From the NCBI GenBank assembly GCA_937958005.1, contig CALGOB010000159.1, forward strand, positions 13,488 to 77,487: a stretch of DNA of 64,000 nucleotides. The letters run 5' to 3'. The notes below the pieces were generated by a model. The model did no database searches, was not told the origin of the DNA, and worked only from the letters and a program-made list of their open reading frames with translations. This DNA is from an uncultured Cyclobacteriaceae bacterium. GTDB lineage: Bacteria > Bacteroidota > Bacteroidia > Cytophagales > Cyclobacteriaceae. The position numbers and the translations under genes are program-made. Shown one piece after another: positions 15,075-62,583 of this stretch; position 1 is the stretch's first letter, and every line of letters starts with the position of its first letter.

Positions 15075-15173
15075 AATCCCTGAGGGATACCTAATTCCCC
15101 GACTCTTGAGTCGATAAAAAAGCTTTTGGCCGATAGAGATACCCCGTACCCTTGGGTCGGGGTTGGTTCATTT
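15075..15173 (+). repeat. R1 element copy a (variant middle section)
   Basis: AATCCCTGAGGGATACCTAATTCCCCGACTCTTGAGTCGAT...ATACCCCGTACCCTTGGGTCGGGGTTGGTTCATTT. Confidence 0.9.
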
Positions 15174-15257
15174 CCCTGGCAGGGCGCCCCGACTCTTGAG
15201 TCGATTATTAAATTATTGCCATAGATACCCCGTACCTTTGGGGCGGGGTTGGTCCAC
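15174..15257 (+). repeat. R1 element copy b (5'-truncated, abuts copy a)
   Basis: CCCTGGCAGGGCGCCCCGACTCTTGAGTCGATTATTAAATTATTGCCATAGATACCCCGTACCTTTGGGGCGGGGTTGGTCCAC. Confidence 0.85.
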
Positions 15258-15338
15258 TTCTTCGGTTCTTGGATCGGAAGTAGCTTTTTTTTGAAGAAAA
15301 GCCACTTGATATCTCGTCAGCCTGCTGCGGAGAACTCC

Positions 15339-15513
15339 ATTCCCTAAGGGATATTAATTCCCCTGATAGGACATTCCAACTCTTGCGTAGGCGATGCAGC
15401 ATCTTTGCGGAGACGCTAAGTCGATCATTAAATTGTCCATAGATACTCCGTACCCTTGTTCTGGGAGCGCCGTTACTTTCTCTGCAGCGGCACTGGGTCG
15501 GTGTTGGTTCATA
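15339..15513 (+). repeat. R1 element copy c (both hairpins carry insertions)
   Basis: ATTCCCTAAGGGATATTAATTCCCC, then the CGACTC/GAGTCG hairpin expanded by ~35 nt. TCGATCATTAAATTGTCCATAGATACTCCGTACCCTT + 37-nt extension + GGGTCGGTGTTGGTTCAT. Confidence 0.85.
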
Positions 15514-15651
15514 GGCTGCTGAATTCATGAAACAATAAAGTCAGGAAATCTTAAGCAATCATGATTGTTGAAATTAAAAAACTCAAGGTCTCTTGCGGAA
15601 GGCTTTGCTGAGACGAAACGGCTATCACACTCTTTTGATGATAGCCTTATT

Positions 15652-17907
15652 TTATATATTCAACCAGTAAGTGAATTTAAGAACAATTGCTCTATTTCTT
15701 TTATTGGAATTCTGTATTTCCGGAAGGAAATTATTTGTTTCAAAATCCCCTCCATAATTCTCCGTAAAGACTAAAAAGATATCTGAAACAGGTTTGAAAC
15801 GCCATTGCAAGCGAGTGTTTATGTTAAAATTATCGGCTCTGTCATTAAACTGAACAAAGGAAGTCAAAAACAATTTTGTAGTGAGGGTTAAGTCTAACCT
15901 TGTACCTATTAGTAAATATTCTATACTTGAAAATGGTTCAGAAAAATTAAGTCTATTGTAATCAATATTTATATTTGCTCTAAATACAGGTTGTATCCTA
16001 TAATTTAAATCAAGTCTGTAATTGGTTCTTTTTCCATTAAAAAATTCACCAGCTGAGAAACTACTCCTAAAATTGAAAACCTTTCTTGAATCACTATTAT
16101 AAGAAAGGTCAAACCTGTTAAAGGTATATGAAGTGCCTGCATCCAAAATGTCTTCTGCAATTCCATTAGGGGCAAACGAACTTCTTAAAGTTACTAATTG
16201 TCTACTAACCCTTAAATTAAAATTTGAAGTGTTCAATAACCTGAAATTATATCCTAAATTGAACTCTCTATCTAGGGTGTTGAGGTCTGGATCCGTAGTG
16301 GTTTCAAACCTGATTTCTGGACCATGGGTCACAAAAGTTTTTGATTCTTCAGGATAAAAACTGTAACTCCAGTTACTGCCAAATGTTTTAATCCCTGTTC
16401 TTCTTACAAACCCAACTTCCGCATTATAGTTTTCACCAACAAAATTATGGAAGTAATTTATTCTTATATTTCGTGTTTGATAACGAGTAAAAATTCCATG
16501 TGAGAAACTTTTGCTCGAGGAAGAGTCAGCAGTAATGGATCTATGGTAATAAGTATTTCCAGTCCATTTATTATCAATTGTCGCTAAGTTATAGTCCAGG
16601 CCAAATACTCGATTAAATTTTGCGTTGTTGATTGTTGAATCATTTTCATCGAAATTGGTTGCCAATCGATTGACAAAAATTCCTCCAATATTAGACCGTT
16701 GTTGTATTTGTCTTTGAAATACGGCAACAGTATAATTTTGAGCAGCGAACGTTTCATTTTCTATTTCTTCACTTCCTGTTTGTAAGTTTAGTAGGCCAAC
16801 ACGCCAGTTTTTTCCTACTTTCCCACTTAATCTAGCACCCCCTCTAATTGGTAATTGCTGAGCACTTGAGCCCGACCCGATAATGCCTATTCTTCTGGAG
16901 AAAAATGGCCGAGAAGGAGGGAAGCCACTTTGGGCAAATAAATCTTGATTCTCTAAAAAGAATTGCCTCCTTTCAGGAAAAGATATTTCAAACCTTCCAA
17001 GGTTATTAACCTGTTGATCAACTTCAACTTGGGAAAAATCTGGATTTATCGTTATATCTAGGTTTAACGAAGGGCCTAGTCCTATTTTAGCATCTATTCC
17101 AGCATTGGCGCTAGAGACTGACCCTATTATAGTACTATCTTCAAGGTTATTAATATTTTGAGCTGTAACATATGGAATAAGTGTAGTGTTTACTTTAGAG
17201 CTCGTTGGGGGCTTATCCCAAATTAATTTGCCAGTATAGATTAAATCTGAAGACCTAAATTGAATGGGGACAGCAATCCAGGTAGATCTTTGGTTAATTT
17301 TAGGATGATTTCTAAGGAAGTTGATATTCCATTCTTTAATGCTATTGAATTTGAAAGACTTAAAAGGAATGGCCATTTCAATCACCCATTTATCTTTGTA
17401 CCTTTTGACTTCGCTAAACCATTTGTTGTCCCAATCATCAGCTACGTCTCCACCTAAGGTAACCAAACCTTCTCTTTGGACATTATAGGGGGTTAATTGA
17501 AATGAAAAACCATTTGACTGGTCATTATAGGGGTCAATGTAAACTGCAAATACATCATTACGGCCAAAATTAAAATCCCTTCTCAAGGATTCAATGATGA
17601 ATTCTCCATCTTGGGAAGTATAGCAAACAGCCCCTATATATAGATTTTTATCATCGTAAGCTATTCTTACCTCAGTTTGTTCAGTAGCAAACTCATTATC
17701 AATAGGGAAGGTCTGATAAAAATCTTCTGCTACATCTGCATTTTTCCAAATTGATTCATCCAACACACCATCAACTATTATTTGACTACCAACAGCCCTA
17801 GTTATATTTAGTGAGGTAGTTTGAGGTGGGTTTTGAGAAAATGCGTGTTTACTGGCGAGTAAAATTATAAACAGGATTAAAAAAGAAAAACTCTTCTTAT
17901 GGATCAC
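15652..17907 (-). CDS. Large secreted/outer-membrane protein (CBM9-like N-domain + DUF5916-like beta-rich region)
   Basis: 751 aa with signal peptide ..KHAFSQ and a beta-strand-rich, aromatic-terminated C-terminus (LKFTYWLNI). GTG start. Family call is from memory. Confidence 0.75.
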   Translation of the reverse strand: MIHKKSFSFLILFIILLASKHAFSQNPPQTTSLNITRAVGSQIIVDGVLDESIWKNADVAEDFYQTFPIDNEFATEQTEVRIAYDDKNLYIGAVCYTSQDGEFIIESLRRDFNFGRNDVFAVYIDPYNDQSNGFSFQLTPYNVQREGLVTLGGDVADDWDNKWFSEVKRYKDKWVIEMAIPFKSFKFNSIKEWNINFLRNHPKINQRSTWIAVPIQFRSSDLIYTGKLIWDKPPTSSKVNTTLIPYVTAQNINNLEDSTIIGSVSSANAGIDAKIGLGPSLNLDITINPDFSQVEVDQQVNNLGRFEISFPERRQFFLENQDLFAQSGFPPSRPFFSRRIGIIGSGSSAQQLPIRGGARLSGKVGKNWRVGLLNLQTGSEEIENETFAAQNYTVAVFQRQIQQRSNIGGIFVNRLATNFDENDSTINNAKFNRVFGLDYNLATIDNKWTGNTYYHRSITADSSSSKSFSHGIFTRYQTRNIRINYFHNFVGENYNAEVGFVRRTGIKTFGSNWSYSFYPEESKTFVTHGPEIRFETTTDPDLNTLDREFNLGYNFRLLNTSNFNLRVSRQLVTLRSSFAPNGIAEDILDAGTSYTFNRFDLSYNSDSRKVFNFRSSFSAGEFFNGKRTNYRLDLNYRIQPVFRANINIDYNRLNFSEPFSSIEYLLIGTRLDLTLTTKLFLTSFVQFNDRADNFNINTRLQWRFKPVSDIFLVFTENYGGDFETNNFLPEIQNSNKRNRAIVLKFTYWLNI

Positions 17908-17954
17908 GGATTGTCTGTTATGTATTGAAAATGAGAACTCTGCCTGAGTATTTG

Positions 17955-18425
17955 TTAATAAGAAATGATATGTTGATCCGCTAGATTTTTTAGAAAATCA
18001 AGATTTGTCACTGTATTCGGATCACTAAATATGTATTGAGACAATTCTCCCACCACGCCAGGTTTGTATCCTAAGTTCATCGCAAGCACTTCACAAAAGG
18101 CAATCTCTTTTTGATGAACTCTTTTATCTACTTTCATTAACTGAATTGTATTGTATAGATAATTGAACTTTTCATCACTAGGCAAATTTCTTAAATTAGC
18201 TATTTTTTTAGGATTGTCAATTATATTTTCGACCTCCTGTTGTGAAAGACCTCCAGCTTTACCAATTCTATGGATCATTTTGCTTTCCGCTTCATCCACA
18301 AACTTGTCCGCTTTGGATATATGAACCAATATACTAACCTGATCTTCGATGGGTAACATACTTATATATTTATCTTTGTTCTTATTAACTTGAGCAAAAG
18401 TAAATAACTTGATGGCAGAAATCAT
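17955..18425 (-). CDS. TerB-like (tellurite-resistance/DjlA N-domain-like) protein
   Basis: Two amphipathic repeats with D..E acidic motifs (ADKFVDEAESKMI; VDKRVHQKEIAFCEVL). ATG at 18425 is preferred over the TTG at 18440. Confidence 0.6.
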   Translation of the reverse strand: MISAIKLFTFAQVNKNKDKYISMLPIEDQVSILVHISKADKFVDEAESKMIHRIGKAGGLSQQEVENIIDNPKKIANLRNLPSDEKFNYLYNTIQLMKVDKRVHQKEIAFCEVLAMNLGYKPGVVGELSQYIFSDPNTVTNLDFLKNLADQHIISY

Positions 18426-18572
18426 TTTTTTTTTGATCAATAGGAGGTTTTTGTAGATGATTAAGTATTATAAAAGACTAAATCATATATATCCTACTAA
18501 ATAATTAGCATATATTATTAAATATCTCTCATAACGTTTTGGAATTTACTTTCCTTATTTTAGATTAGCAAT

Positions 18573-18626
18573 ATGAATTCAAGAATGACAAACAAAGCGT
18601 GGTGGTGGAACGATTATAGCATATAG
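18573..18626 (+). CDS. trpL: trp operon leader peptide MNSRMTNKAWWWNDYSI (three consecutive Trp codons)
   Basis: ATG 18573, TGG TGG TGG at 18600-18608, TAG at 18624-18626. A terminator follows directly, then trpE. Confidence 0.85.
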   Translation: MNSRMTNKAWWWNDYSI

Positions 18627-18660
18627 TCGCGAACAGCTACGTTATATATAAATATTATAA

Positions 18661-18687
18661 ACCCGCTCTTCGCAGCGGGTTTTTTTG
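18661..18687 (+). terminator. trp attenuator terminator
   Basis: ACCCGCT-cttcgc-AGCGGGT + TTTTTT, 21 nt before trpE. GCGAACAGC (18629-18637, just after the leader stop) can pair with GCTCTTCGC (18665-18673) as an antiterminator. Confidence 0.85.
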
Positions 18688-18707
18688 TTTCTAACATTTT
18701 AGAGAAA

Positions 18708-20126
18708 ATGAATAAAAAGAATTTTAAATTTATTACGACTTATAAAAAGCAACTGGCAGATACTGTTACGCCAGTGAGTATATACTTAAAGCTAAGAGAT
18801 AAGTTTGCGCATTCTTTTTTATTGGAAAGCTCAGACTATCACGGTGATGAAGACAGTTTCTCATATATCTGTTGTGACCCAATTGCTGAGTTTCTACTAG
18901 ACGCAGATGATAACGTCAATATTCAATATCCAGATGGAAGTGACGATAGGTTCCAGTTGACAAACCAGAAAGATTTAGTACAGCATTTAGATCAGTTTGC
19001 AAAGTCTTTTGAAAGTGATGACTCAAAAACTTTCAATTTTGTACAAAATGGGTTATTCGGATATATGGCCTATGAAGCAGTAACTAATTTTGAAGATATT
19101 ACCCTTGTCAATAAGAATCCAGATTTTGATACGCCCAAAGTGATTTATAACCTCTTCAGGTATGTAATTGTGTTAGATCACTTTAAAAATGAGTTATACA
19201 TTTTTGAACATCAGATAGAGGGGAGTGAACCGAAAGGGATTACTCAGATAGAGTCATTGATTGCAAGTAAAAATTTCCCGAGCTTTAATTTCAATAGAAG
19301 TAGTGAAATTCGTTCTGATTTAACAGATTCAGCCTATCTAGAGATTGTCAAGAAAGGAATACATCATTGTGATATTGGGGATGTTTTTCAGATAGTACTT
19401 TCTAGGAGGTTCAAGGTAGATTTTAAAGGAGACGAATTTCAAGTGTATCGTGCACTCCGGTCTATAAACCCATCTCCTTATTTGTTCTATTTCGATTATG
19501 GAAATTTTAAGATATTTGGCTCTTCACCTGAAGCACAAATTGTTATAAAAGATGATAAAGCGACTATTTACCCAATAGCGGGAACCTTTAGGAGAACTGG
19601 TGATGATCTTGCTGACGCAGAATTGGCTAAGCAACTTCATGCTGATCCAAAAGAAAATAGTGAACACATTATGTTAGTAGATCTTGCTCGGAATGACCTT
19701 AGCAAAAGTAGTGAGAAGGTAGAGGTGGAAACCTACAAAGAGATTCAGTATTTTTCCCATGTGATTCATTTAGTTTCTAAGGTTGTTGGGCAATTAAAAA
19801 AAGGAGAAGTTCCTTTGGAAATGGTAGCTTCTACATTTCCTGCTGGCACACTTTCTGGTGCTCCTAAGCACAAGGCGATGCAGCTAATAGATCACTATGA
19901 ACACATTGCTAGAGGGTATTATGGAGGAGCAATAGGGTTTATGGGCTTTAATGGTGATTTTAACCATGCCATTATGATCCGATCTTTCTTAAGTCAAAAT
20001 AATCGCTTGAACTTTCAAGCTGGTGCTGGCGTAGTATCTAAATCTAACCCCGAAAGTGAAGTGCAAGAAGTCTATAATAAATTAGCTGCATTACAATTTG
20101 CCCTGGAGGAGGCAGAAAAAATATGA
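18708..20126 (+). CDS. trpE: Anthranilate synthase component I
   Basis: 472 aa; LLESSDYHG near the N-terminus and a chorismate-binding C-domain (GTLSGAPK..GGAIGF). Confidence 0.95.
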   Translation: MNKKNFKFITTYKKQLADTVTPVSIYLKLRDKFAHSFLLESSDYHGDEDSFSYICCDPIAEFLLDADDNVNIQYPDGSDDRFQLTNQKDLVQHLDQFAKSFESDDSKTFNFVQNGLFGYMAYEAVTNFEDITLVNKNPDFDTPKVIYNLFRYVIVLDHFKNELYIFEHQIEGSEPKGITQIESLIASKNFPSFNFNRSSEIRSDLTDSAYLEIVKKGIHHCDIGDVFQIVLSRRFKVDFKGDEFQVYRALRSINPSPYLFYFDYGNFKIFGSSPEAQIVIKDDKATIYPIAGTFRRTGDDLADAELAKQLHADPKENSEHIMLVDLARNDLSKSSEKVEVETYKEIQYFSHVIHLVSKVVGQLKKGEVPLEMVASTFPAGTLSGAPKHKAMQLIDHYEHIARGYYGGAIGFMGFNGDFNHAIMIRSFLSQNNRLNFQAGAGVVSKSNPESEVQEVYNKLAALQFALEEAEKI

Positions 20127-20692
20127 AAACCTTAGTATTAGATAATTACGATTCTTTTACTTATAACCTTGTTCATATATTAAGAGAATTAGGAGAGGAA
20201 CATGATGTAATTAGAAATGATAAAATGTCACTGGAAGAAGTAGGGGGATATGATCGGATATTATTGTCTCCTGGCCCTGGTGTTCCATCGGAGGCTGGGA
20301 TTATGCCTTCGCTTATTAAAAAATATGGTAACCAGAAAAGTATTTTAGGGGTATGTCTAGGCCATCAGGCAATTGCAGAAGCCTACGGTGGTGAAATCTT
20401 CAACTTACCTGAAGTTTATCATGGGATTGCTACTGATGTAATACTTTCAGTAGATAATGAACCTTTATTTGAAGGTTTACCCAAGAAATTCAAAGTATGC
20501 CGATACCATTCTTGGAGTGTTGCAGCGGAAGAGATGTCAGATGATTTACTAGTTACCGCTAGGGATGAAGCTGGCCAAATAATGTCTATCAGCCATAGGG
20601 AACACAATGTAAGAGGAGTTCAGTTTCATCCTGAGTCCATCCTGACTGAGCACGGCAAAGCAATGATTCAAAACTGGTTAAATATTAAATAG
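20123..20692 (+). CDS. trpG: Anthranilate synthase component II (glutamine amidotransferase)
   Basis: GVCLGHQ nucleophile elbow and a C-terminal HPES motif. ATGA overlap with trpE. Confidence 0.95.
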   Translation: MKTLVLDNYDSFTYNLVHILRELGEEHDVIRNDKMSLEEVGGYDRILLSPGPGVPSEAGIMPSLIKKYGNQKSILGVCLGHQAIAEAYGGEIFNLPEVYHGIATDVILSVDNEPLFEGLPKKFKVCRYHSWSVAAEEMSDDLLVTARDEAGQIMSISHREHNVRGVQFHPESILTEHGKAMIQNWLNIK

Positions 20693-20703
20693 AAAGATTT
20701 GAT

Positions 20704-31920: not shown

Positions 31921-31944
31921 AATAAATTAACCTTGAGAATATTT

Positions 31945-31976
31945 AACAGCTAACATTTATTTTAGCTGTTTTTTTG
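31945..31976 (+). terminator. Rho-independent terminator
   Basis: AACAGCTAA-catttatt-TTAGCTGTT + TTTTTT, 25 nt after the stop at 31920. Confidence 0.75.
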
Positions 31977-32777
31977 TGCCCTTCGGGTTTGAGTAAAAAG
32001 AAAACCCTTGAATATATTCAAGGGCTTAACCAGCTATGGAACACAATCTACTGTAATTTTTATAGATAATTATCTACTTTTATTACAAGGCAAATATTCA
32101 AAAGATTAAAGTTTTTTTACTGTCAAAGAACTTGACAATACTGCCAAAGACCGACTAAAATCGTTCTGAATGCTGTTTTTACTGAAAATGATGGATTAAA
32201 CCCTCATTTCAATACTTGGGCAAAGTAACTAAAAAGGAGCTAACTTGTTACTAGCAGTCATGTCAAAGCCCATGAATATAATGGTGAGGTTGTCCCTACC
32301 CGCATTTTGGGTGTGAGGTAAAACCCTAGTGATAGTTCATTAGGACTTAGAAACATTAATTGGTGATCCATTGAATCAATCATTTATCAAAAAATCATTA
32401 AAATCAAAACTGTAGCTTCTATTAGAAAACAAATGCAACATTTAGGTATATCACTCACTGAAATATCTACAACTTGAAATAGAAGTTAAATGGAATTATT
32501 CATGACAAACCATGACCTTGCGTAGTAAGTAATTGATTTGCTTTTATGATGATAAACTCAAGGATTAGCATAGCCCAAATTTGAAGAATGTCAATTTTAC
32601 TCCCCAGAATAGATTACGGTGATGGTCAAAGATTTAGCTTTTCTAATAATTATCTCTCTGGTTCAGCATTCCAAATTATTCAGATTAGATGACTGTATCC
32701 ATGCTATGGGGATCTAAAATAAGTGTTTGTAATTTTGAGCTTTCTAATCTCATAACGATTCCTAATGTGGAATTAAT

Positions 32778-32847
32778 ATCAATTTAGATTTATAAGGGGG
32801 TCTATCTATTAGCAGATTTAGTCTCTAAGAGATATTAATTCTCCTAG
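32778..32847 (+). repeat. Degenerate repeat mosaic: 45-nt block shared with 14638-14690 plus an R1 5'-module variant
   Basis: CAATTTAGATTTATAAGGG..TTAGCA.ATTTA matches 14638-14690. 32823-32847 CTCTAAGAGATATTAATTCTCCTAG compares with R1 CCCTAAGGGATATTAATTCCCCTGG. Confidence 0.6.
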
Positions 32848-32946
32848 TTATCCTGATAGTAGTATGAAAAGTATTTAGAAATGAAAACAGCCTAACAACT
32901 TAATGTCAGACTGCTTTGCTAACCTAAACCTAATCTTTAGTGTTTT

Positions 32947-33040
32947 AATCCCTAAGGGATATTAATTCCCCGACTCTTGAGTCGATCATTAAATTATTGC
33001 CCATAGATACCCCGTACCCTTGGGTCGGGGTTGGTTCATT
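32947..33040 (+). repeat. R1 element copy d (minimal 94-nt form)
   Basis: AATCCCTAAGGGATATTAATTCCCCGACTCTTGAGTCGATCATTAAATTATTGCCCATAGATACCCCGTACCCTTGGGTCGGGGTTGGTTCATT. Confidence 0.95.
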
Positions 33041-33141
33041 AATATTTTAACCTATAAATTTAATGAAGGTCTGTTTGACCTGAAGCTTGCTCGCATGTGT
33101 TTTTTCGATATGATCTTAATAATTTTAACAGATTAAAGTTT

Positions 33142-33366
33142 TTATATTGCACTTAACTCTGCCTCCCATGATTCATCTTTTCTGGCTGAGTTAAGCTCTC
33201 GTATAATCTTATTTGCTAATGACTGATTAGAATCATTAAATTTAAATAATAAAGTGAAAGCATCTCTATTCACACTTTTAGATCTCAACTCTTTATAATG
33301 AGTTCCAGTGCCCCATTCATATTTTCTTAAATCTGGGTTATACCAGATTAATCTTTTGGTCTTCAT
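33142..33366 (-). CDS. Small protein of the LWYN..L.(K/E)Y.(Y/W)G family (74 aa)
   Basis: MKTKRLIWYNPDLRKYEWGT...KIIRELN aligns with the two 65-aa ORFs at 60216 and 60507. Lies 100 nt from R1 copy d. Confidence 0.55.
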   Translation of the reverse strand: MKTKRLIWYNPDLRKYEWGTGTHYKELRSKSVNRDAFTLLFKFNDSNQSLANKIIRELNSARKDESWEAELSAI

Positions 33367-36856: not shown

Positions 36857-36936
36857 AGATGCACTAAGATTAGGGCTTTTAAATGGAAGAAATTATTAAT
36901 TCAGTTCTGGTTATCATGTGATAAAGTGCTATAGAT

Positions 36937-37120
36937 TTAACCCAAATGATGCATTAGACTTTTAAGAGAAAATAATAAATGGCTGTTAGATAGCTGCTTA
37001 AATTCTGATTTGCAACGCAGACATAGTCTCCATTATGGTGAGTAGGAAATTATGATTTAAGTGACTGAATGACTCTTAGTTATAGTTTGCATCAAACTTC
37101 TATTGCATCATTCGGGTTAA
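36937..37120 (-). mobile_element. R2: 184-bp MITE-like element with ~18-bp terminal inverted repeats
   Basis: TTAACCCAAATGATGCA (36937-36953) is inverted against TGCATCATTCGGGTTAA (37104-37120). The interior is near-identical (reverse complement) to 49446-49630. No ORF. Confidence 0.75.
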
Positions 37121-37219
37121 AAGTAAAAACTTCTAGATTTTAAAGATAAATAAGCCTTTGGCCTGTCATTAACAATTGGGATTAATGATGAGATGAAACC
37201 TTTGTGTGAAAAGCAGAGA

Positions 37220-41203: not shown

Positions 41204-41333
41204 AATCCCTAAGGGATATTAATTCACCGACTCTTGAGTCGATCTTTAAATTATTGCCCATAGATACCCCGTACCCTTCTGCGAGCGCTGTAACTTTCTC
41301 AGCAGAGGCACTGGGTCGGGGTTGGTTCATTTT
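41204..41333 (+). repeat. R1 element copy e (long form, 34-nt extension of the 3' hairpin)
   Basis: ...CCCCGTACCCTT[CTGCGAGCGCTGTAACTTTCTCAGCAGAGGCACT]GGGTCGGGGTTGGTTCATTT. Ends 14 nt before the ATG at 41347. Confidence 0.95.
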
Positions 41334-49362: not shown

Positions 49363-49445
49363 ATTGAAGCGCAAAGTTAAGTCTAAAATTTGCAATAAAA
49401 TGCTTTAATGGACTAAATATGCACGAAAATAGAAGATTACTAGTG

Positions 49446-49630
49446 TTAAACCTGTAATCTGGATTCGGAATTTGATCTAAACTATAACTAACAGTCATCT
49501 AGTCACTTAAATCCTCATTTCCTACTCATCTTAATGGAGACTATGTCTGCGTTGCAAATCAGAATTTAAGCAGCTATCTAACAGCTATTTAGGATTTTCT
49601 CTTAAAAGTCTAATGCATCATTCGGGTTAA
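49446..49630 (+). mobile_element. R2 MITE-like element, second copy
   Basis: The ~150-nt interior is near-identical to the reverse complement of 36937-37120. The right TIR TGCATCATTCGGGTTAA is intact and the left TIR has diverged. Confidence 0.75.
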
Positions 49631-49765
49631 ATTTAGAAAACACCAATATCTCACTTTTTGCTAGAATCCTTAAAAACCGAGGTATTGAATATATATATAA
49701 AAGGATAAATGTACTTCAAAACACTTCAAACAAAGGTTTTTGTCATTTTTTTAAATTCAGATAGA

Positions 49766-49813
49766 CCCTAGATAGCCGCTGGGGACCACCCTTGGGGCAG
49801 GGCTAGGTCATTT
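49766..49813 (+). repeat. R1 3'-module, diverged copy j
   Basis: CCCTAGATAGCCGCTGGGGACCACCCTTGGGGCAGGGCTAGGTCATTT versus consensus CCCATAGATACCCCGTACCCTTGGGTCGGGGTTGGTTCATTT. Abuts the stop of the histidine kinase gene. Confidence 0.6.
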
Positions 49814-51526
49814 CTAAATCACTTTTAAATGTTTGGTTAAGACTGATATTATCTTGTTGTGCTCCAGAGGTTTACTAAGAAATCCTTCAAAGCAGTTTTT
49901 AAAATCAGGATCTTCTTTTATGGTAATATCCGCAGATAAAGCATATATAGGGGTATTCTGATAATTTTTGAGTTTTTTGATTCTTTTTGTAGTTTCCATT
50001 CCTCCCATTTCAGGCATATGGATATCCATTAAAACTAGATCATACTGATTTTTTTGGTACTTAATGATTGCTTCTTTACCTGATTCTGCTATATCTACCT
50101 GAAGTCCCCATTTGCTCAAGGTCTTTTTGATCACCATTGCATTGATTTGATAGTCTTCTACCACAAGGACTTTTTGATTTTTAAGATCTAGGACAATTTT
50201 ATTTAGATTTTTTTCAGTACTCACCTGAACTCGTTCAAGTAATAATTTAAAAGTAAATTCTGAGCCTTTTCCAAGTGTTGATTGTACCATTATTCTAGAA
50301 TCAAAAAGCTTCAATAATTCTGTGACAATGCTCAAACCAAGACCTGATCCGCCATACTTTTTTGTGATGCTACTTGATAACTGAGAAAAACTAGAAAATA
50401 TACTATTTATCCGATCAGATGGGATACCAATTCCAGTATCAATAATTGAAAACGCAATGTGATCTTTGTCTGTAGTTGAATTTATTTTTTTGATTACAAT
50501 TCTAACAGACCCTTCGTGAGTGAATTTGATAGCATTATTGATAAGATTCCCAATAATTTGGGTAAATCGTAATTCATCTAATAGGTAGGTTTTATTTAAT
50601 GTTTTATCAATATCTAACTCTATGGAGATATTTTTTTCATTTGCGATAATATGATAAGCATTTTTGATATTTGAAATTAACCTTTTCAGGTCTATTGGAT
50701 TCATGTCCAAAGAGATTTTTCCAGCTTCTAACTTACTGAAATCCAATATGTCATTAATTATATTCATGAGATGGTCTGAAGAAAACTTCAATGAATTAAT
50801 CAAATCAGAATTGTCATTTGTATTTCCTTCTGAGAGTAGTTTAGAGATTGAAACAACAGCATTCAAAGGTGTTCGGATTTCATGACTCATCGAGGCGATA
50901 AAATCACGTTTTGCCTTAGAGGCCTTGATGGCATCATTTTTAGCATTAATCAGTTCACTTTCTGTTAAATCTATTGATTGATAGAATAGATAATAAAATA
51001 AACCTGCATGTATGCAGCAAATAACAGTGATGGAGAATTTAATGAATAAGGCTATTTCAGGAGCAATAGCTATAGGATCTATGAATGTTAAAGGGACGAA
51101 TTCACTTAGTAATAGAAAAATAGAATTGTAAAAAAAGAAAAACACAATTGAATACTTTTCTTCTTTTTTTAGAAAAATGAATGGATAAGAAAACGTAAGA
51201 ATCATAAAATACTCTATTCCTAAGCCTGGGCCTATTAAGAATATATAATAGTATATAGCTGGGGCAGAGTTAACATTAAGGAGATATCTGCCAGCTTTTT
51301 GATAATTAAAATAATTTAGAATAGGAGGTAGCAGGCATACTACTATAACAGCAAATATAATCAGCGCACCTCTTTGGTTTCCTTGTATGATAAAGAATAT
51401 TGCATATACAAGCAGTAGGCCAGAAACCCCAAAGCCAAATATGTTAATTGCTGATATTCTTGCTTTATCTTTTTTGCTTTGACCTGTGTCGATTCCTAGG
51501 TTTAGTAAATGCCTTAGCGTTTTCAT
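49814..51526 (-). CDS. Hybrid sensor histidine kinase / response regulator with polytopic membrane N-domain
   Basis: H-box SHEIRTPLNAV, N/G boxes (NLINNAIKFT; DTGIGI; GGSGLGL) and a receiver domain (VLVVED..DLVLMDIHMPEMGG..K). Confidence 0.9.
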   Translation of the reverse strand: MKTLRHLLNLGIDTGQSKKDKARISAINIFGFGVSGLLLVYAIFFIIQGNQRGALIIFAVIVVCLLPPILNYFNYQKAGRYLLNVNSAPAIYYYIFLIGPGLGIEYFMILTFSYPFIFLKKEEKYSIVFFFFYNSIFLLLSEFVPLTFIDPIAIAPEIALFIKFSITVICCIHAGLFYYLFYQSIDLTESELINAKNDAIKASKAKRDFIASMSHEIRTPLNAVVSISKLLSEGNTNDNSDLINSLKFSSDHLMNIINDILDFSKLEAGKISLDMNPIDLKRLISNIKNAYHIIANEKNISIELDIDKTLNKTYLLDELRFTQIIGNLINNAIKFTHEGSVRIVIKKINSTTDKDHIAFSIIDTGIGIPSDRINSIFSSFSQLSSSITKKYGGSGLGLSIVTELLKLFDSRIMVQSTLGKGSEFTFKLLLERVQVSTEKNLNKIVLDLKNQKVLVVEDYQINAMVIKKTLSKWGLQVDIAESGKEAIIKYQKNQYDLVLMDIHMPEMGGMETTKRIKKLKNYQNTPIYALSADITIKEDPDFKNCFEGFLSKPLEHNKIISVLTKHLKVI

Positions 51527-56172: not shown

Positions 56173-56484
56173 ATGATAACCTGTTATGTGAATTATGTGA
56201 TTGATCCTTATAAACTAGAGGAATTTGTGATTTATGCCAAGAAATGGATCCCTTTAGTAGAGCGATTTGGAGGGGAGCATCATGGTTATTTTTTACCACA
56301 CGAAGGACCGAACAATATTGCTATAACATTATTCAGTTTTGAATCTTTAGCAGATTATGAGCAATATAGAATCGATAGTATGAAAGATCAAGATTGTTTG
56401 GATGCTTATGAATATGCGAAGAAAACTAGATGTATTATAAGTTATGAACGCTCTTTTATGAAACCAATATTTAACGAGCAATGA
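56173..56484 (+). CDS. NIPSNAP-like / dimeric alpha-beta-barrel small protein
   Basis: 103 aa. W.P..ERFGG.H.GYF.P.EG.NN.A..LF.F.SLA.YE.YR resembles NIPSNAP. Confidence 0.6.
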   Translation: MITCYVNYVIDPYKLEEFVIYAKKWIPLVERFGGEHHGYFLPHEGPNNIAITLFSFESLADYEQYRIDSMKDQDCLDAYEYAKKTRCIISYERSFMKPIFNEQ

Positions 56485-57128: not shown

Positions 57129-57443
57129 ATCGCGTTCAGCATATTGGTGAGTTGGAAGTATTTCATTCTTGATAGATTTATTAAGAGATTATCGTTTCAA
57201 TAAGTAATTGTGTCTTTTTATTACAAGATACGGTGGGTACAATTGAGAAATTTTTATGTTTTTGGGATTGAAATTAATTATGTCATTTAACCAGATTTGT
57301 GAAGATGTCAAATGAAAGCAGCACGACTGTTTAGGTATTTTATAATTTACAATGGAACATTTTAAAGTTTTTGTGTGTAGAACACTAGAACTCTTTAATT
57401 GAATGAGATAGACTCATTTTTATTTTAATGTAGGATAATTATT

Positions 57444-58472
57444 ATGAAAAGAAACCCCCACTTAGTAGTAAAAACTGTTTTTTTACAAATTTTTGTTTTC
57501 TTATTAACGTCGATCTTTGCTTTAGATACTTCAGCACAAAAGAGAACTAATCCTGACAACCAAAGTGAGGAGTTAGGAAAAGTTAGTTGGTATAGGGATT
57601 ATGACCAAGCTGTAAAATTGGCTCATGATCAGGGAAAAGCCATACTAATACTGTTTCAGGAAATCCCAGGCTGTGCTACCTGTAGAAATTACGGACATAA
57701 TGTTTTGACTCATCCGTTAATGGTCGAAGCCATTGAAAACTCATTTATTCCATTAGCAATTTATAACAATAAAGGAGGAAAGGACAGAGAAATTTTAAAG
57801 AAATTTAAAGAGCCAAGTTGGAATAATCCTGTGGTTAGAATTGTAAGTGACAATGGTTGGGATATTGTTCCACGAGTTGCTGGTAATTATTCCTCGTTAG
57901 GTTTATATAAAGCGATGTCTTCGGCTTTAAAACAGAGAGATAAAACCTTACCTGAGTATATGAAATTATTAGGAGAGGAGCTTGCTGCAGTAGACAACAA
58001 CAATGTAAAAGAGAAATACTTTAAAATGTATTGCTTTTGGAGTGGAGAGAAACATTTGGGAAAAGTGGAAGGTGTTTTATCTACTAAAGCAGGGTTCTTA
58101 AATGGGTATGAAGTAGTAAAAGTGAAATATGATGAACGATTTATAAGCGAGAATTTATTGGATGAGTATGCAGACAAGGCAAGCTGTTCCCCTATAGGAA
58201 ATGGACAATCGTATCGGTATTCCGATAGGGATCATTTATTTTATTTGCAGAAGACTGCTTATAAATATATTCCATTGACAGAAATCCAGAAGACTAAAAT
58301 TAATAGTGCACTCGGTAGTGGTCAGTCTGGGAAACGATACTTGAGCCCGCAGCAAGAGAAATGGTTGAATCAAGTTAGTAAAACTTCTAATCCAGGATCT
58401 GAGCTTTTTGATAAAGACATATTAACTGCTTGGTCAATGAAGTCTGCTACTAGCAAGAATTTGAATCCCTAA
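57444..58472 (+). CDS. Secreted thioredoxin-fold / MsrA-like fusion protein
   Basis: Signal peptide. Trx-like N-half with IPGCATC. The C-half has MYCFWSGE..G.VEGV..T.AG, resembling the MsrA GCFWG motif. The last three codons and TAA stop lie inside R1 copy f. Confidence 0.75.
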   Translation: MKRNPHLVVKTVFLQIFVFLLTSIFALDTSAQKRTNPDNQSEELGKVSWYRDYDQAVKLAHDQGKAILILFQEIPGCATCRNYGHNVLTHPLMVEAIENSFIPLAIYNNKGGKDREILKKFKEPSWNNPVVRIVSDNGWDIVPRVAGNYSSLGLYKAMSSALKQRDKTLPEYMKLLGEELAAVDNNNVKEKYFKMYCFWSGEKHLGKVEGVLSTKAGFLNGYEVVKVKYDERFISENLLDEYADKASCSPIGNGQSYRYSDRDHLFYLQKTAYKYIPLTEIQKTKINSALGSGQSGKRYLSPQQEKWLNQVSKTSNPGSELFDKDILTAWSMKSATSKNLNP

Positions 58473-58572
58473 GGGATATTAATTCCCCTGGCTGGGCGCC
58501 CCGACTCTTGAGTCGATCATTAAATTATTGCCCATAGATACCCCGTACCCTTGGGTCGGGGTTGGTTCATTT
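58464..58572 (+). repeat. R1 element copy f (with 12-nt TGGCTGGGCGCC module)
   Basis: AATCCCTAAGGGATATTAATTCCCCTGGCTGGGCGCCCCGACTCTTGAGTCGATCATTAAATTATTGCCCATAGATACCCCGTACCCTTGGGTCGGGGTTGGTTCATTT. Confidence 0.95.
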
Positions 58573-58591
58573 AGATTAAATACTAATAAAT

Positions 58592-58628
58592 AAAAAAGCA
58601 TCTTGATTAATTTAAAGATGCTTTTTTA
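58592..58628. terminator. Bidirectional terminator
   Basis: AAAAAAGCATCTT-gattaattt-AAAGATGCTTTTTT between convergent genes. Confidence 0.8.
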
Positions 58629-58655
58629 TGCATAAAATTGGATAAAATAGATATT

Positions 58656-59444
58656 TTATTCAGCAGCTAGAGTTACTTTCCTAGTTACTTTGTTAAAAGG
58701 CCCTTCTATGTAATTCCCATCTTTATCTATTAATTCCAATGAAACAGTTAGTTCTCCTAGTGGTGCATTTTCAATGTAAAAAGGAGCCCATTCGTCAATC
58801 AAGAATTCTTTTCCATTAATAGTTGCTTTAACTTTATTTCCGTCACTAGCTAATTCTGTGTTTAGGAGGTAGAAATCGAGCATGAGTTTCTTTGTGTCAT
58901 CTCCTTTGTAAGTTCCTTTAGGTCTACTATAAAATAAATGTTTTTGCGAAAAGTCTACATCTTCTCTTGGTACGTTACCTACGGTTAACTGGGTGGTAAT
59001 AAAAGCATTGGTGTTCTTTACACTTTCATGATATGATCTGGATAAGAAAGCCAATATGGTATAATTGCCAGGTTCCATTGCTTTTTTAAAAGTAGGGTCA
59101 TAATGAGCAGAATACGGCCCATTATTAACAATCAAATGGATGTGTTGGCCCTTACCAGAATTGGCAATCCCTCTAGATGTAGCATCTTCAGTCTGTACAC
59201 CTAAATCATAACTTGATACCACGAAATCAAAGTAAACGCTATCCGCAGGTACTTTTTCATGAAAAGGTTCCTTTAAAGTTAAGACAGCATCTTCATATGG
59301 TGGAGAAAGGGGGGCTTTGGTAATGGTAATAGGGTTGTTGTCTTTTTTAGTAGTTGTTTCTGTATCTTTTTTTTCTTTGGTGTTTTTACCGTTACATGCA
59401 GCCAATAAAATGACCGTACATGCTATTAAGGTTAGATTTTTCAT
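58656..59444 (-). CDS. Lipoprotein of unknown function
   Basis: Lipobox ILLAAC and a Lys/Thr-rich linker, 262 aa. Confidence 0.75.
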   Translation of the reverse strand: MKNLTLIACTVILLAACNGKNTKEKKDTETTTKKDNNPITITKAPLSPPYEDAVLTLKEPFHEKVPADSVYFDFVVSSYDLGVQTEDATSRGIANSGKGQHIHLIVNNGPYSAHYDPTFKKAMEPGNYTILAFLSRSYHESVKNTNAFITTQLTVGNVPREDVDFSQKHLFYSRPKGTYKGDDTKKLMLDFYLLNTELASDGNKVKATINGKEFLIDEWAPFYIENAPLGELTVSLELIDKDGNYIEGPFNKVTRKVTLAAE

Positions 59445-59602
59445 GTTTTAATAATGTTTAAAAAAATAATTAGGTTTGACTGATAAAATTAATAACATAA
59501 TTATCTATATTAAAATAATACAGTTTTCTTTTACAGGAGAATATAGAACTGAGTTCATTGTTGTTTTTCGGTAAGTCTCATTAAACTTGATTTATGCAAT
59601 TG

Positions 59603-59711
59603 AATCCCTAAGGGATATTAATTCCCCTGGCCGGGCGCCCCGACTCTTGAGTCGATCATTAAATTATTGCCCATAGATACCCCGTACCCTTGGGTCGGGG
59701 TTGGTTCATTT
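59603..59711 (+). repeat. R1 element copy g
   Basis: Differs from copy f at a single position (TGGCCGGGCGCC module), by eye. Confidence 0.95.
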
Positions 59712-59713
59712 CT

Positions 59714-59824
59714 AATTTCCTACTTGCCATAATGGGGACTAAGCTTGCGTTGCAAAATTTAAGGAACTATCTAACAGTTATTTATGATTTTCTCTTAAAA
59801 GTCTAATGCATAATGATAGTTTAA
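59714..59824 (+). mobile_element. R2 MITE fragment (5'-truncated), directly abutting R1 copy g
   Basis: AATTTCCTACT..TAATGG.GACTA..GCGTTGCAAA..CTATCTAACAG..TTTTCTCTTAAAAGTCTAATGCAT matches the right two-thirds of R2. Confidence 0.7.
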
Positions 59825-59844
59825 AAAAACTGCTTTTGGGCAAA

Positions 59845-59892
59845 TCCCACTTTAAACCCGACTGCGGCCAATCGCCTGACACCCCGCTAAAT
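59845..59892 (+). repeat. R3 repeat, second copy
   Basis: TCCCACTTTAAACCCGACTGCGGCCAATCGCCTGACACCCCGCTAAAT is the reverse complement of the pattern at 836-884. Confidence 0.6.
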
Positions 59893-60215
59893 TATTAAGC
59901 GAACCTTCCTAAAGGTGTGAAAAAGAATATCTATTTTCTCAGAAGTCATTAATATATTATTTTATTTACTGTTTAAGTGGTTACTTTTTGTTTAACTTTT
60001 CCATTAATAGATGGATAAAAAGTTAAACAACGCAACTAAATCATATATTTGGAACGTTATTGGTATATAGTAAGTTTTTTTTGGATTAAATCAATAGGGT
60101 TTTTTCTTTAATAGTGGTAATAGTAATAATTGAAATGTAATTTTTAAATTTTATTTTAATGTTTCTTGGTTTAATGCATCTATTTTAAAATGATTAGAAA
60201 CAGAATTAAAAGCGG

Positions 60216-60413
60216 ATGGAAAATAATATTTTTTTGTGGTATAATGAAGTCTTGAATGAATATAGTTATGGCTCCCAAGAGGAGTTGGATCAGGTTATTA
60301 TTTATTATGCTGAAGATAAGATTACAATATTATATAAAATGGATCAAGTTAAAATCTCTCTTTGTAAAAAGATTACTGACAATTTAAATAACGTTAGAAC
60401 GGAAGTAGCATAA
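60216..60413 (+). CDS. Small protein of the LWYN..L.EY.YG family (65 aa)
   Basis: MENNIFLWYNEVLNEYSYGS..EDKITILY..KKITDNLN, paralogous to 60507-60704 and 33142-33366. Confidence 0.6.
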   Translation: MENNIFLWYNEVLNEYSYGSQEELDQVIIYYAEDKITILYKMDQVKISLCKKITDNLNNVRTEVA

Positions 60414-60506
60414 GGATTAATTTATGGTGATAGCAGTGGGGTAGGATCTATTACTGGTTTTAAAATTTACACTAGACTATGTAGAATGACTTAAAAACTT
60501 AAAACT

Positions 60507-60704
60507 ATGAACAGTAAGATATATTTATGGTATAATGGTGTTTTATGTGAATATAATTATGGCACTGATATAGAATATGAAAAACTTAAACTTCAATACC
60601 CTGAAGATAAGATTGATGTTCTATGTACTTTGGATACTCATCAGATCAATGTTTGTAAGAAAATAACGAATAAATTGAACTACGCGGTTGTTGATGCCAA
60701 ATAG
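60507..60704 (+). CDS. Small protein of the LWYN..L.EY.YG family (65 aa)
   Basis: MNSKIYLWYNGVLCEYNYGT..EDKIDVLC..KKITNKLN, a tandem paralogue of 60216-60413. Confidence 0.6.
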   Translation: MNSKIYLWYNGVLCEYNYGTDIEYEKLKLQYPEDKIDVLCTLDTHQINVCKKITNKLNYAVVDAK

Positions 60705-60746
60705 TTAATCAATGAGGCGAATAGTAGTCCTTAATTTGACTTTTTT

Positions 60747-60855
60747 AATCCCTAAGGGATATTAATTCCCCTAGCTGGACACCCCGACTCTTGAGTCGAT
60801 CATTAAATTATTGCCTATAGATATCCCGTGCCCTTGGGTCTGGGTTGGTTCATTT
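60747..60855 (+). repeat. R1 element copy h (several substitutions)
   Basis: AATCCCTAAGGGATATTAATTCCCCTAGCTGGACACCCCGACTCTTGAGTCGATCATTAAATTATTGCCTATAGATATCCCGTGCCCTTGGGTCTGGGTTGGTTCATTT. Confidence 0.95.
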
Positions 60856-60872
60856 CTTTTAGTTAGACTTAT

Positions 60873-61688
60873 TTAAATAACATTTCCAAAAACATGAATT
60901 TGATCTGAAGTAGGGGATGCTTTTCCTCCTATGTCTTCCAAGGATATGGCAAATGCAGTAGCATTTGGAACGTTATTCAGTTCACTCAATTCATTACTTT
61001 TCACAGAAGGGTCTATTAACCCAATGCTTACAGGAGCACCGTCTATAATCGCCCAAAACTGGTATTGTTTATTAGGTGCAGGTTTAGGGAGGTTTGCTAT
61101 AGATACATAAATAGATTCTTTGCCTCTAAACACATATGCAAATGAATCAGTGTGCTCACCAAGGCCTTCCAAAGAAATTTGTTTATAATCTTTTGCTTGG
61201 GTAATATTAGAGTAATCTAAATATTTAGTTTGTAAGGAAGCAAATAACTCATTAGATTCTGTCAAATCAGCTTTTAAAGAGGCATTTTCGGCTTTCAATT
61301 CTACTAGCTGATTGTTTATATAAATTGATAGAGCAGCGGTAAATAAGAAAGCAGTAATTGCTGCTGCTGCAATATACCTTAAAACCTTAATTTTCCTTAA
61401 TGGTACCTGCTTTTCAATATTGGGTTTGATCTCTTTTGTTAATTCAGCAACTGGAGTGGCTTTCTTCTCAGTGATTTTTGATAATAGATTTTCTTTAATA
61501 TTTATAGAAGGTTGAATAGCATTTCTTTTGTCAAATTGATAAAGGGTTTCTTGAATACTATCAATTTCACGTTGAATAATAGGATACTTTTGAGCTAGGA
61601 GTATTATTTTCTGCTCACTTTTCTCATCGAGGACTCCCATACAGAATTCCTCAAGTATTCCAGATTCTATGTAATCCTTGATTTTCAA
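60873..61688 (-). CDS. Anti-sigma factor (RskA-like, single TM)
   Basis: Sits downstream of an ECF sigma gene. TM helix YIAAAAITAFLFTAALSIYI and an extracytoplasmic C-domain. TTG start. Confidence 0.7.
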   Translation of the reverse strand: MKIKDYIESGILEEFCMGVLDEKSEQKIILLAQKYPIIQREIDSIQETLYQFDKRNAIQPSINIKENLLSKITEKKATPVAELTKEIKPNIEKQVPLRKIKVLRYIAAAAITAFLFTAALSIYINNQLVELKAENASLKADLTESNELFASLQTKYLDYSNITQAKDYKQISLEGLGEHTDSFAYVFRGKESIYVSIANLPKPAPNKQYQFWAIIDGAPVSIGLIDPSVKSNELSELNNVPNATAFAISLEDIGGKASPTSDQIHVFGNVI

Positions 61689-61726
61689 AATTTGTTTCTA
61701 TATTTATTAAATACGTTCATTATTTA

Positions 61727-62308
61727 TCAAAAAGATTCATCATTACTTTTTAATTTTATACCATATACAATTCTTAATTTTTTTAGAGCAGCTCTCACTC
61801 TAGATTTAACAGTGCCTAATGGAATACTATGCTTTTTTGAAACATCTTCACCTGTATAACCTTGGAAATACATTAATCTAATGATAAATGCTTGATCATC
61901 GTTTAAATGTTTTAGTAGATCCTCTGAGAATATTTTATTCAACTGGTTGTCTACCTGAAACTCCGAGGATGACTTGATATTATCTGTTATTGTGTCTGTT
62001 ATACCCATTTTAACAAACTCTTTGGATCTGATTTTATCTAAAGCAAGGTTTCTAGCTATTTTGTGCATCCAAGTATAAAGCCGTCCTTTTTGTTCATTAT
62101 AAGAATCTATCTTAGACCAGATTTTTAAAAATGTATCTTGAAGAACTTCTTCAGCTAAGTCTTGATTATTTACTAATCTGATAATTACACCTAAAAGTGT
62201 CGCAGAGTAATTGTCATATAAAAATGCCAAGGCATCGCTATCCTTGTCAATTAATCGTTTGACAAGATCCATTTCTGCTTGAAGTCGCTTTGTATTAGCT
62301 TCTAACAT
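61727..62308 (-). CDS. ECF-type RNA polymerase sigma factor
   Basis: Region 2 (AEEVLQDTFLKIW) and region 4 HTH (YTGEDVSKKHSIPLGTVKSRVRAALKKLR). Confidence 0.85.
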   Translation of the reverse strand: MLEANTKRLQAEMDLVKRLIDKDSDALAFLYDNYSATLLGVIIRLVNNQDLAEEVLQDTFLKIWSKIDSYNEQKGRLYTWMHKIARNLALDKIRSKEFVKMGITDTITDNIKSSSEFQVDNQLNKIFSEDLLKHLNDDQAFIIRLMYFQGYTGEDVSKKHSIPLGTVKSRVRAALKKLRIVYGIKLKSNDESF

Positions 62309-62440
62309 TTAAATATATGCTCTGTTTGACTGCTTTCTGTCTTAAATGAAAGTTAAGGAATACGCCATATTGAAAACAATCATTAAAAATCAAATATATA
62401 TTAAATGAATATTTAAGAAGACTATTTTGATTAAAAATTT

Positions 62441-62583
62441 AATCCCTAAGGGATATTAATTCCCCTGGCCGGGCACCCCGACTCTTGAGTCTATCATTAA
62501 ATGATTACCATAGATACCCCGTACCCTTCTGCGAGCGCTGTAGCTTTCTCAGCAGAGACACTGGGTCTGGGTTGGTTCATTTT
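62441..62583 (+). repeat. R1 element copy i (12-nt module plus 34-nt hairpin extension; longest form)
   Basis: ...TTCCCCTGGCCGGGCACCCCGACTCTTGAGTCTATC...CCCCGTACCCTT[CTGCGAGCGCTGTAGCTTTCTCAGCAGAGACACT]GGGTCTGGGTTGGTTCATTTT. Confidence 0.95.

Follow-up and report, generated by a model that had tools for sequence, protein, structure and literature searches.

Introduction

In the insertion sequence (IS) IS608, the transposase TnpA binds to imperfect palindromes in subterminal positions of the top strand (PMC3201880, PMC5934647). The left cleavage and target site, TTAC, lies outside the element and 5' of the left hairpin, at a distance of 19 nt; the corresponding distance on the right is 10 nt (PMC3201880). 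Both sites are recognised through base pairs with four guide nucleotides that adjoin the foot of the hairpin on its 5' side (PMC3201880, PMC5934647). Throughout the IS200/IS605 family, the active strand inserts into the lagging-strand template (PMC5027513). Derivatives that keep only the ends of such elements have been described. The palindrome-associated transposable elements (PATEs) of Haloquadratum walsbyi have near-terminal palindromes and ends of IS605 type, have neither inverted terminal repeats nor target duplications and are too short to encode a transposase (PMC3119063), and a further ends-only derivative is the PATE-like element of Halanaerobium (PMC7290912). Here we analyse R1, a GC-rich, hairpin-bearing repeat in 64,000 nt of an uncultured Cyclobacteriaceae bacterium (assembly GCA_937958005.1, contig CALGOB010000159.1, positions 13,488 to 77,487 of the forward strand). 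This whole stretch is called the window, and coordinates count from its first letter. We conclude that R1 is very probably a non-autonomous, ends-only derivative (a PATE) of an IS200-group insertion sequence of the IS200/IS605 family. Gene-less, hairpin-bearing ends of IS200 type are a kind of selfish DNA that is already known, and R1 is a real but ordinary example.

R1 resembles IS608, ISDra2 and IS200 in having an imperfect palindrome with an extrahelical T near each end, in lacking terminal inverted repeats (TIRs) and target-site duplications (TSDs), and in its insertion point, which lies 3' of four target bases that can pair with a guide of equal length located 5' of the left hairpin. In this window, its active strand is also on what GC skew suggests to be the lagging-strand template. 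Its hairpin-to-site geometry is 19 and 9 nt, compared with 19 and 10 nt in IS608, with the left site outside and the right site inside the element. As in the IS200/IS605 family, the autonomous relatives of R1 encode a PF01797 transposase that ends just before the right hairpin. However, R1 is 91-172 nt long without tnpA or tnpB whereas IS200 is about 700 nt, its target is T(T/G)AA rather than the TTAC of IS608, and it has extras that IS608 and IS200 do not, namely a small hairpin in the left linker and three optional modules (A, B and C). As for PATEs, R1 shows every sequence-level feature by which those of Haloquadratum were defined (PMC3119063). It also shares with them homogeneous subfamilies of >90% identity and palindromes that are interrupted by other small inserts (PMC3119063), and shorter 'terminal-only' forms are found on both sides, core-deleted and 52 bp long in Haloquadratum and about 55 nt long in three of the metagenome loci described below. 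In contrast to the Haloquadratum PATEs, R1 resides in a bacterium and not in a haloarchaeon, its parent is of the IS200 group (tnpA only) whereas IS1341/tnpB-type parents dominate in Haloquadratum, and the inserts in its hairpin loops (34-37 nt) are not found as free-standing repeats.

Results

The window contains nine clear copies of R1, of 91-172 nt, and two relics that retain a single end. All of them are on the + strand and fall between 15.07 and 62.58 kb. Repeat finding and self-BLAST of the window recovered the family where it had been predicted, and its 15-nt 3' motif GGGTCGGGGTTGGTT, allowing up to three mismatches, gave nine matches, all on the + strand, where shuffles expect 0.38. 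A covariance model built from ten copies and run with filters off on both strands found nine + copies (E 1e-31 to 2e-6) and a weak extra + match at 32820-32906, with nothing credible on the - strand of the window (best E 0.08). The original prediction had listed at least ten copies of 95-145 nt. Nine of these hold, including the one at 15174, which is real but 5'-truncated and abuts the copy at 15075, whereas the entry at 49766 is merely a right-end relic with a different hairpin; the length range has to be widened at both ends, to 91 nt for copy 4 and about 172 nt for the copy at 15339, which contains three modules. The window itself (~34% G+C) contains ordinary chromosomal genes, including the trp operon, DNA polymerase III alpha, aconitase and an extracytoplasmic function (ECF) sigma/anti-sigma pair, and the closest named relatives of its proteins are from Flavobacteriaceae at ~60% identity, e.g. 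Aquimarina and Winogradskyella. R1 occupies intergenic DNA and gene 3' ends, all its reading frames are interrupted or trivially short, and a scan and BLAST of viral contigs, plasmids and phages gave no match to it.

The minimal form of R1, copy 4 (predicted at 32947; 32949..33039, +; 91 nt), serves as our reference. Its target TTAA (32945-32948) is followed by a 19-nt linker (32949-32967), the last 4 nt of which, AATT, are the left guide, and then by the left hairpin CCCCGACTCTTGAGTCG (32968-32984), which can be written CCCCGACT-CTTG-AGTCG. A spacer of ~21 nt leads to the right guide GATA (33006-33009), the right hairpin CCCCG-T-ACCCTTGGGTCGGGG with its extrahelical T (33010-33030; in general form CCCCG(T)ACC-CTTG-GGTCGGGG) and a 9-nt tail TTGGTTCAT (33031-33039) that closes in the terminal cleavage site TCAT. 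The two subterminal imperfect palindromes, CCCCGACTCTTGAGTCG on the left and CCCCGTACCCTTGGGTCGGGG on the right, both have a CTTG loop and are identical in some relatives. The GACT-CTTG-AGTC hairpin and long 3' helix noticed earlier are thus present, relabelled as the left and right transposase-binding palindromes, and it is because both serve this function that CCCCGAC recurs at both hairpins. The small hairpin in the left linker is a lineage-specific extra of R1.

No TIRs are present in an alignment of the nine copies, as the 5' end TCCCTAAGGG... is not the reverse complement of the 3' end ...GGTTGGTTCAT. Of the eight full copies, seven have TTAA or TGAA as their left flank; right flanks are variable and do not match the left copy by copy. 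The earlier description of R1 as lacking both TIRs and target duplications, with TT(T/G)AA on its left, was correct; the AA that it took as a constant flank is indeed seen and is most likely part of the target TTAA. From the guide/site pairing rule set out below, the boundaries of R1 can therefore be refined, most likely to TTAA|TC...TCAT|T, with the flanking AA belonging to the target and not to the element. We also considered reading the ATTT-like flanks as TIRs or TSDs, which was rejected as left and right flanks do not covary copy by copy. Likewise rejected was a classical MITE (miniature inverted-repeat transposable element) mobilised by a DDE transposase, since R1 has neither TIRs nor a TSD. 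R1 is like MITEs and modular repeats (Correia/NEMIS, BOX, ERIC) in being short, non-coding, intergenic and sometimes modular, and such repeats can likewise alter gene ends or transcription; however, those whose mobilisation is known have the TIRs and target duplications of DDE transposases, and R1 has neither.

The decisive search was a metagenome scan with the exact 21-nt right hairpin CCCCGTACCCTTGGGTCGGGG alone, which gave 88 loci; a scan with the pattern CCATAGATACCCCGTACCCTT, which is too species-specific, had given no match. In at least 15 of the 88 loci, the hairpin lies directly 3' of the stop codon of an open reading frame (ORF) of 147-151 aa that closes in ...NTVGQYANEETIINYVKNQGKKY..., and by tblastn this ORF is present, complete or partial, in 19 loci. 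It encodes an IS200-like Y1 transposase (PF01797 Y1_Tnp, E 9e-37 and 7e-38), in which the HUH motif reads HVH and the C-terminal catalytic-tyrosine helix Y-V/I-K-N-Q. The left ends found 5' of these tnpA genes, e.g. TTAA|TCTAAGGAGGGTTTAATT-CCCCGACCCTTGGGTCG, align along the first 38 nt of R1 (that of locus L042 reads AATCTAAGGAGGGTTTAATTCCCCGACCCTTGGGTCG), and 35 positions in the last 37 nt of R1 match the right end of L042, TAGATACCCCGTACCCTTGGGTCGGGG-TAGTTCATT. Both ends align in this way in L042, L056, L013, L010 and other loci. Moreover, one IS occurs in differing flanks (both ends in L013, L059 and L080, the right end also in L020), which fixes its limits as ...TTAA|TC and TCAT|T. Because both of its ends align with the ends of tnpA-bearing elements, R1 can be described as a left end plus a right end without the transposase gene. 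A Y1 transposase with matching ends, which had been named as a check on the single-strand transposition reading, therefore does exist in metagenome loci (PF01797), though none lies in the window.

The same scan also yielded other ends-only families and R1-like copies in assembly ERZ1740068. Three loci (L024, L055, L074) hold single-hairpin 'terminal-only' elements of ~55 nt, TTAA|TCGAATGTTTAGAATT-CCCCGTACCCTTGGGTCGGGG-TAGTTCAC, in which one hairpin stands for both ends. Three others (L009, L010, L063) represent an IS200 sub-lineage with an extra ~35-nt hairpin between the right palindrome and the predicted TTAT site, which therefore lies ~46 nt instead of ~10 nt from the hairpin.

These transposases also bear on whether R1 is a repeat of the repetitive extragenic palindrome (REP) or bacterial interspersed mosaic element (BIME) type, mobilised by a domesticated single-copy REP-associated tyrosine transposase (RAYT) instead of being a true IS derivative. 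RAYTs are likewise Y1/HUH enzymes that act on hairpins, REP and REPIN repeats share with R1 a GC-rich, intergenic, hairpin-based make-up and a high copy number, and JGI labels several homologues of the related transposases 'REP element-mobilizing transposase RayT'. That label, however, is a generic COG name. The clade comprises >7,600 database clusters at E<=1e-30 from several phyla, which are named 'IS200/IS605 family transposase'. Its genes are bounded by asymmetric left and right ends, and identical ends in unrelated flanks (L013, L059, L080), the recurrence of P0147 in 8 contigs from several samples and the many relatives on ~700-nt stand-alone contigs are the behaviour of a mobile IS. Whereas REPs are single short palindromes of 20-40 nt, usually in inverted pairs and served by one domesticated gene, R1 is 91-172 nt long and has two different, direct-oriented hairpins with linker and guides, that is, asymmetric guided ends that stem from a multi-copy IS; nor does the window contain inverted doublets of R1 hairpins. 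We therefore find RAYT mobilisation, which the original prediction had offered as an option, very improbable, as the related transposases belong to insertion sequences with defined ends that occur in multiple contexts.

Support for R1 as an IS200-type PATE also comes from the guides and their sites, which change together among the relatives. Using the pairing scheme taken from published sequences (c-4:g2, c-3:g1, c-2:g3, c-1:g4), four classes of guide and site are found on the right (GATA/TCAT, GATG/TCAC, CATA/TGAT and AATA/TTAT), each with the predicted site 4-6 nt into the tail, and three on the left, namely AATT/TTAA (18 distinct left ends), ATTT/ATAA (4-5) and AATA/TTAT (a copy in an NCBI genome). 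In R1 itself, the left pair is AATT/TTAA and the right pair is GATA/TCAT. Its distances between hairpin and cleavage site (19 nt left, 9 nt right) compare with 12-20 and 8-11 nt in relatives. Exceptions to the pairing are TGAA and TAAA targets next to an AATT guide, and the copies with module A, in which the guide is displaced. Thus the earlier suggestion of a single-strand-DNA transposon derivative of IS200/IS605 type is supported both by end homology and by the guide/site rule.

Hairpin covariation was likewise seen across lineages. In a set of 12 sequences picked by eye as distinct left hairpins, 98.3% of cells are paired compared to 79.7% in shuffles, and 12 double-sided changes are found compared to 3.8; in 500 shuffles, none of three measures (percentage of paired cells, double-sided changes and covariation score) ever reached its observed value. 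Such covariation is what would be expected from structure-specific binding of a DNA hairpin by TnpA and is not evidence for RNA, because these hairpins also flank tnpA genes. Among the window copies there is no compensatory change in any base pair and most stem substitutions break pairs; these copies are too similar to be informative, and broken pairs without compensation are the pattern that young, neutrally decaying copies would show. The predicted hairpins exist but are energetically unexceptional, the whole element folding only slightly better than shuffles (z -0.3 to -2.3).

We therefore give very little credence to the proposal that the R1 copies form a small structured RNA family, be it of sRNA genes or of cis-acting modules such as terminators, in which hairpins and CUUG loops would be kept for an RNA function. 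Its C(CUUG)G-type loops, the U-rich tail after the 3' hairpin, the optional modules at helix tips, the position of three copies (41204, 58464 and 60747) just downstream of + strand genes and the few substitutions that yield G-U rather than A-C on the + strand would all suit such a family. However, Rfam 15 has no match over R1 at the gathering threshold, and at E<=10 over 58.3-62.7 kb gives only a chance match to snoR41 (E 4.2). No conserved promoter or other sequence is shared upstream of the copies, and the Bacteroidota-type TAnnTTTG was not seen in a manual reading of R1. Copies are found upstream and downstream of genes as well as across them, whichever way the two are oriented, and also antisense over a gene 3' end. 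Among the window copies there are no compensatory pairs and stem substitutions mostly break pairs, the folding z-scores are weak, and the cross-lineage covariation is fully explained by transposase recognition of the DNA hairpins flanking tnpA.

We next turn to strand. The + strand of the window is G-rich whatever the gene orientation. Read on this strand, the GC skew at third codon positions (GC3) is +0.18 in + genes and +0.11 in - genes. Intergenic DNA without R1 has a GC skew of +0.07, and the replication component is about +0.07. The leading strand is usually the G-rich one. The + strand should therefore have the sequence of the lagging-strand template, and this G-rich strand carries the top strand of all nine copies and both relics. 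To look beyond the window, R1 was translated in six frames and searched against a protein database, which gave two proteins with R1-encoded termini, and a cluster mate led to contig L002 of a 99%-identical strain. In P0121/P0124 the last 30 residues are supplied by R1, and P0122, a 185-aa ORF, has R1 in sense at its N-terminus and another R1 antisense at its C-terminus. L002 carries an intact R1 on the G-rich strand and a disrupted R1 on the C-rich strand, 80 nt apart. The disrupted copy in L002 (3898-4012, on the + strand of that contig) breaks off in the left hairpin (CCCCGACTCT|CATATG...), and CCCGACTCT recurs ~65 nt on, as if another small insertion had entered the hairpin and duplicated 9 nt; the contig stops there.

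The opposite-strand copies in L002 and P0122 make 'always on the same strand' a property of the window, where the covariance model bears it out for every copy, and not an absolute rule. Similarly, the claim that polarity follows the chromosome and not transcription agrees with the G-rich placement whatever the gene orientation, but not with the unbiased copies of ERZ1740068 or the opposite pair in L002. A link between R1 polarity and replication is consistent with the data here but not established. The idea that R1 is an architectural motif with chromosomal polarity (KOPS/Chi-like, or a replication or segregation signal), kept on its strand by selection and not by its mode of insertion, as 10 of 10 copies on the + or leading (G-rich) strand might suggest, is hardly credible and is excluded by the two orientations found within 100 nt in L002, with opposite-strand copies 80 nt apart in this close strain and within one 185-aa ORF, no strand bias in the related population, a modular, decaying sequence of 91-172 nt inserted into gene ends, and homology to IS ends that suffices as the cause of polarity.

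The individual copies range from minimal to extended and from intact to decayed. Copy 1 (15075; 15077..15171, +) is a 95-nt short form without modules at target TTAA (15073-15076), and is of the same subtype as the copies in ERZ1740068 contigs. It shares with the other short-form copy, that at 32947, a further ~16 nt upstream of the TTAA. Copy 2 (15174; 15174..15257, +) begins 2-3 nt past the end of copy 1. The first ~21 nt of its left end are missing, it contains module A and its right-end tail is mutated (TCCAC). Directly 3' of it, a hairpin with T8 (ACTTCTTCGGTTCTTGGATCGGAAGTAGCTTTTTTTT; 15258-15297, +) resembles a terminator on the + strand, with no long + ORF upstream. Copy 3 (15339; 15341..15512, +) is about 172 nt long (172-177) with a degenerate module A, module B at 15386-15418 and module C at 15458-15494; it is probably immobile, because its left flank is CCAT instead of TTAA.

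The left-end relic at 32822-32860 (+; 23.5 bits and E 0.003 in the covariance model) consists of TCTCTAAGAGATATTAATT followed by a decayed hairpin, with three coordinated C>T / G>A changes relative to the R1 linker. It lies with copy 4 (32947) in 1.2 kb (31921-33141) without any ORF of at least 75 aa, where a stretch of 47 nt also matches 14635-14680 (85%), a segment that lies upstream of the 15075 cluster. Copy 5 (41204; 41206..41330, +) is 125 nt long, without module A and with a 34-nt module C at 41279-41312 in the right hairpin loop. The solo right-end relic (49766..49812, +) has guide GATA, a deviating hairpin GCCGCTGGGGACCACCCTTGGGGCAGGGC and tail TAGGTCAT, abuts the 3' end of the gene at 49814-51526(-), and stems from a different IS200 lineage.

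Copies 6 (58464; 58466..58570, +), 7 (59603; 59605..59709, +) and 8 (60747; 60749..60853, +) are each 105 nt long with module A, which occupies 58489-58502 in copy 6. Copies 6 and 7 have the left target TGAA, and are identical at 111 of 112 aligned nt (99.1%, self-BLAST) in unrelated flanks, which implies recent spread. Copy 6 gives the ORF at 57444-58472(+) its stop codon and last two codons, and assemblies break at R1, contigs L001 and L003 both ending inside this copy. In copy 8, substitutions break or wobble several hairpin pairs. Copy 9 (62441; 62443..62580, +) is 138 nt long, contains modules A and C (C at 62529-62562) and is found between the start of a sigma-factor gene and the end of the aconitase gene. 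Between it and the aconitase gene, a perfect GC-poor hairpin with A and T runs alongside (AAAAAGCACTCTGTTCA...TGAACAGAGTGCTTTTTTT; 62609-62648) looks like a bidirectional intrinsic terminator.

Module A (14 nt) sits between the guide AATT and the left hairpin and is also found in ERZ1740068 copies; the copies that carry it are the commonest and youngest of R1. Module B (33 nt) lies in the left hairpin loop of copy 15339 only, and module C (34-37 nt) in the right hairpin loop of copies 15339, 41204 and 62441, at separate loci, with no occurrence elsewhere. All four combinations of A and C are present, so copies have recombined or have gained and lost modules repeatedly. All three modules are secondary insertions.

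Several other features adjoin R1. A second, unrelated repeat of ~205 nt, R2, occurs at 36933-37136 (+), 49430-49635 (-) and, truncated, at 59713-59825 (-); it has clear terminal inverted repeats (TTTAACCCRAATGATGCATTAGA ... TCTAWTGCATCATTCGGGTTAAA) and looks like a classical MITE. The truncated R2 immediately adjoins R1 copy 59603 on its 3' side, and a second R2 ends ~130 nt upstream of the 49766 relic. An empty-site comparison of copy 59603 as an insertion into R2 was dropped, as R2 is simply truncated at the junction and no clean target can be reconstructed. Three paralogous ORFs of 65-74 aa with the motif (I/L)(W)YN..L.EY.YG (33142-33366 (-), 60216-60413 (+) and 60507-60704 (+)) all adjoin R1 copies, two of them in tandem. 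The sole Rfam match in the window is a Bacteroidales-type small signal recognition particle RNA at 10688-10786 (-) (RF04183, 80.9 bits).

Discussion

R1 combines end homology to transposase-bearing insertion sequences and guide/site covariation with the end anatomy of the IS200/IS605 family and, in this window, a placement on the G-rich strand. By homology with IS608 and ISDra2, a Y1 (HUH) TnpA supplied in trans would bind both hairpins on the single-stranded top strand, and each guide would pair with its cleavage tetranucleotide, the left one with the flanking TTAA and the right one with TCAT at the right tip. Transposition of this kind would leave neither inverted repeats nor a target duplication and would set one orientation relative to replication, which would explain why all window copies are on the G-rich + strand. 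Copies landing at gene 3' ends could supply stop codons or C-terminal tails. Present-day mobility of R1, its mobilisation in trans and its targeting of replication forks may thus be expected in the source organism, by analogy with these systems.

A number of observations weigh against this account of R1 as a mobilised PATE. No tnpA was found within the window (tblastn; Pfam on candidate ORFs), and the related TnpA proteins in NCBI and ENA all come from other organisms or samples, the master tnpA of R1 not being among them. The sole close strain compared shares the 58464 insertion. The guide/site combinations number only seven and are related by descent, and therefore represent few independent covariation events. 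As to strand, L002 and P0122 hold oppositely oriented copies close together, and ten R1-like copies in ERZ1740068 are divided between the G-rich strand (about 4) and the C-rich strand (5-6). Finally, module A moves the guide AATT 14 nt away from the left hairpin, so that the fit to the IS608 model is not obvious, and two module-A copies have TGAA, not TTAA, as left target. If copies with module A or loop inserts are still mobilised, displacement of the guide and extension of the hairpins would be tolerated or used in this lineage as a variant of the IS608 geometry, and the loop inserts would correspond, in a bacterium, to the small repeats by which PATE palindromes are targeted in Haloquadratum; we regard this as an unlikely possibility.

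To conclude, reading R1 as a PATE accounts for a GC-rich, strand-polar repeat in an AT-rich chromosome without a new RNA or chromosome signal. It also helps to avoid misannotation, as R1 yields spurious ORFs, adds stop codons or C-terminal tails to genes and breaks assemblies. For the family, the 88 loci with their seven guide/site combinations are a natural experiment that supports the IS608 guide-pairing rule in a distant and widespread IS200 clade, and provide a comparative set with ends-only derivatives as short as about 55 nt. The module-A copies in turn raise a testable question, that is, how long a distance between guide and hairpin is tolerable. The strand of R1 may mark the direction of replication in fragmentary metagenome-assembled genomes of this species, although the bias failed in a related population. 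In the uncultured source lineage it is conceivable, though not likely, that a genome-wide burst of R1 is remodelling the 3' ends of many genes.

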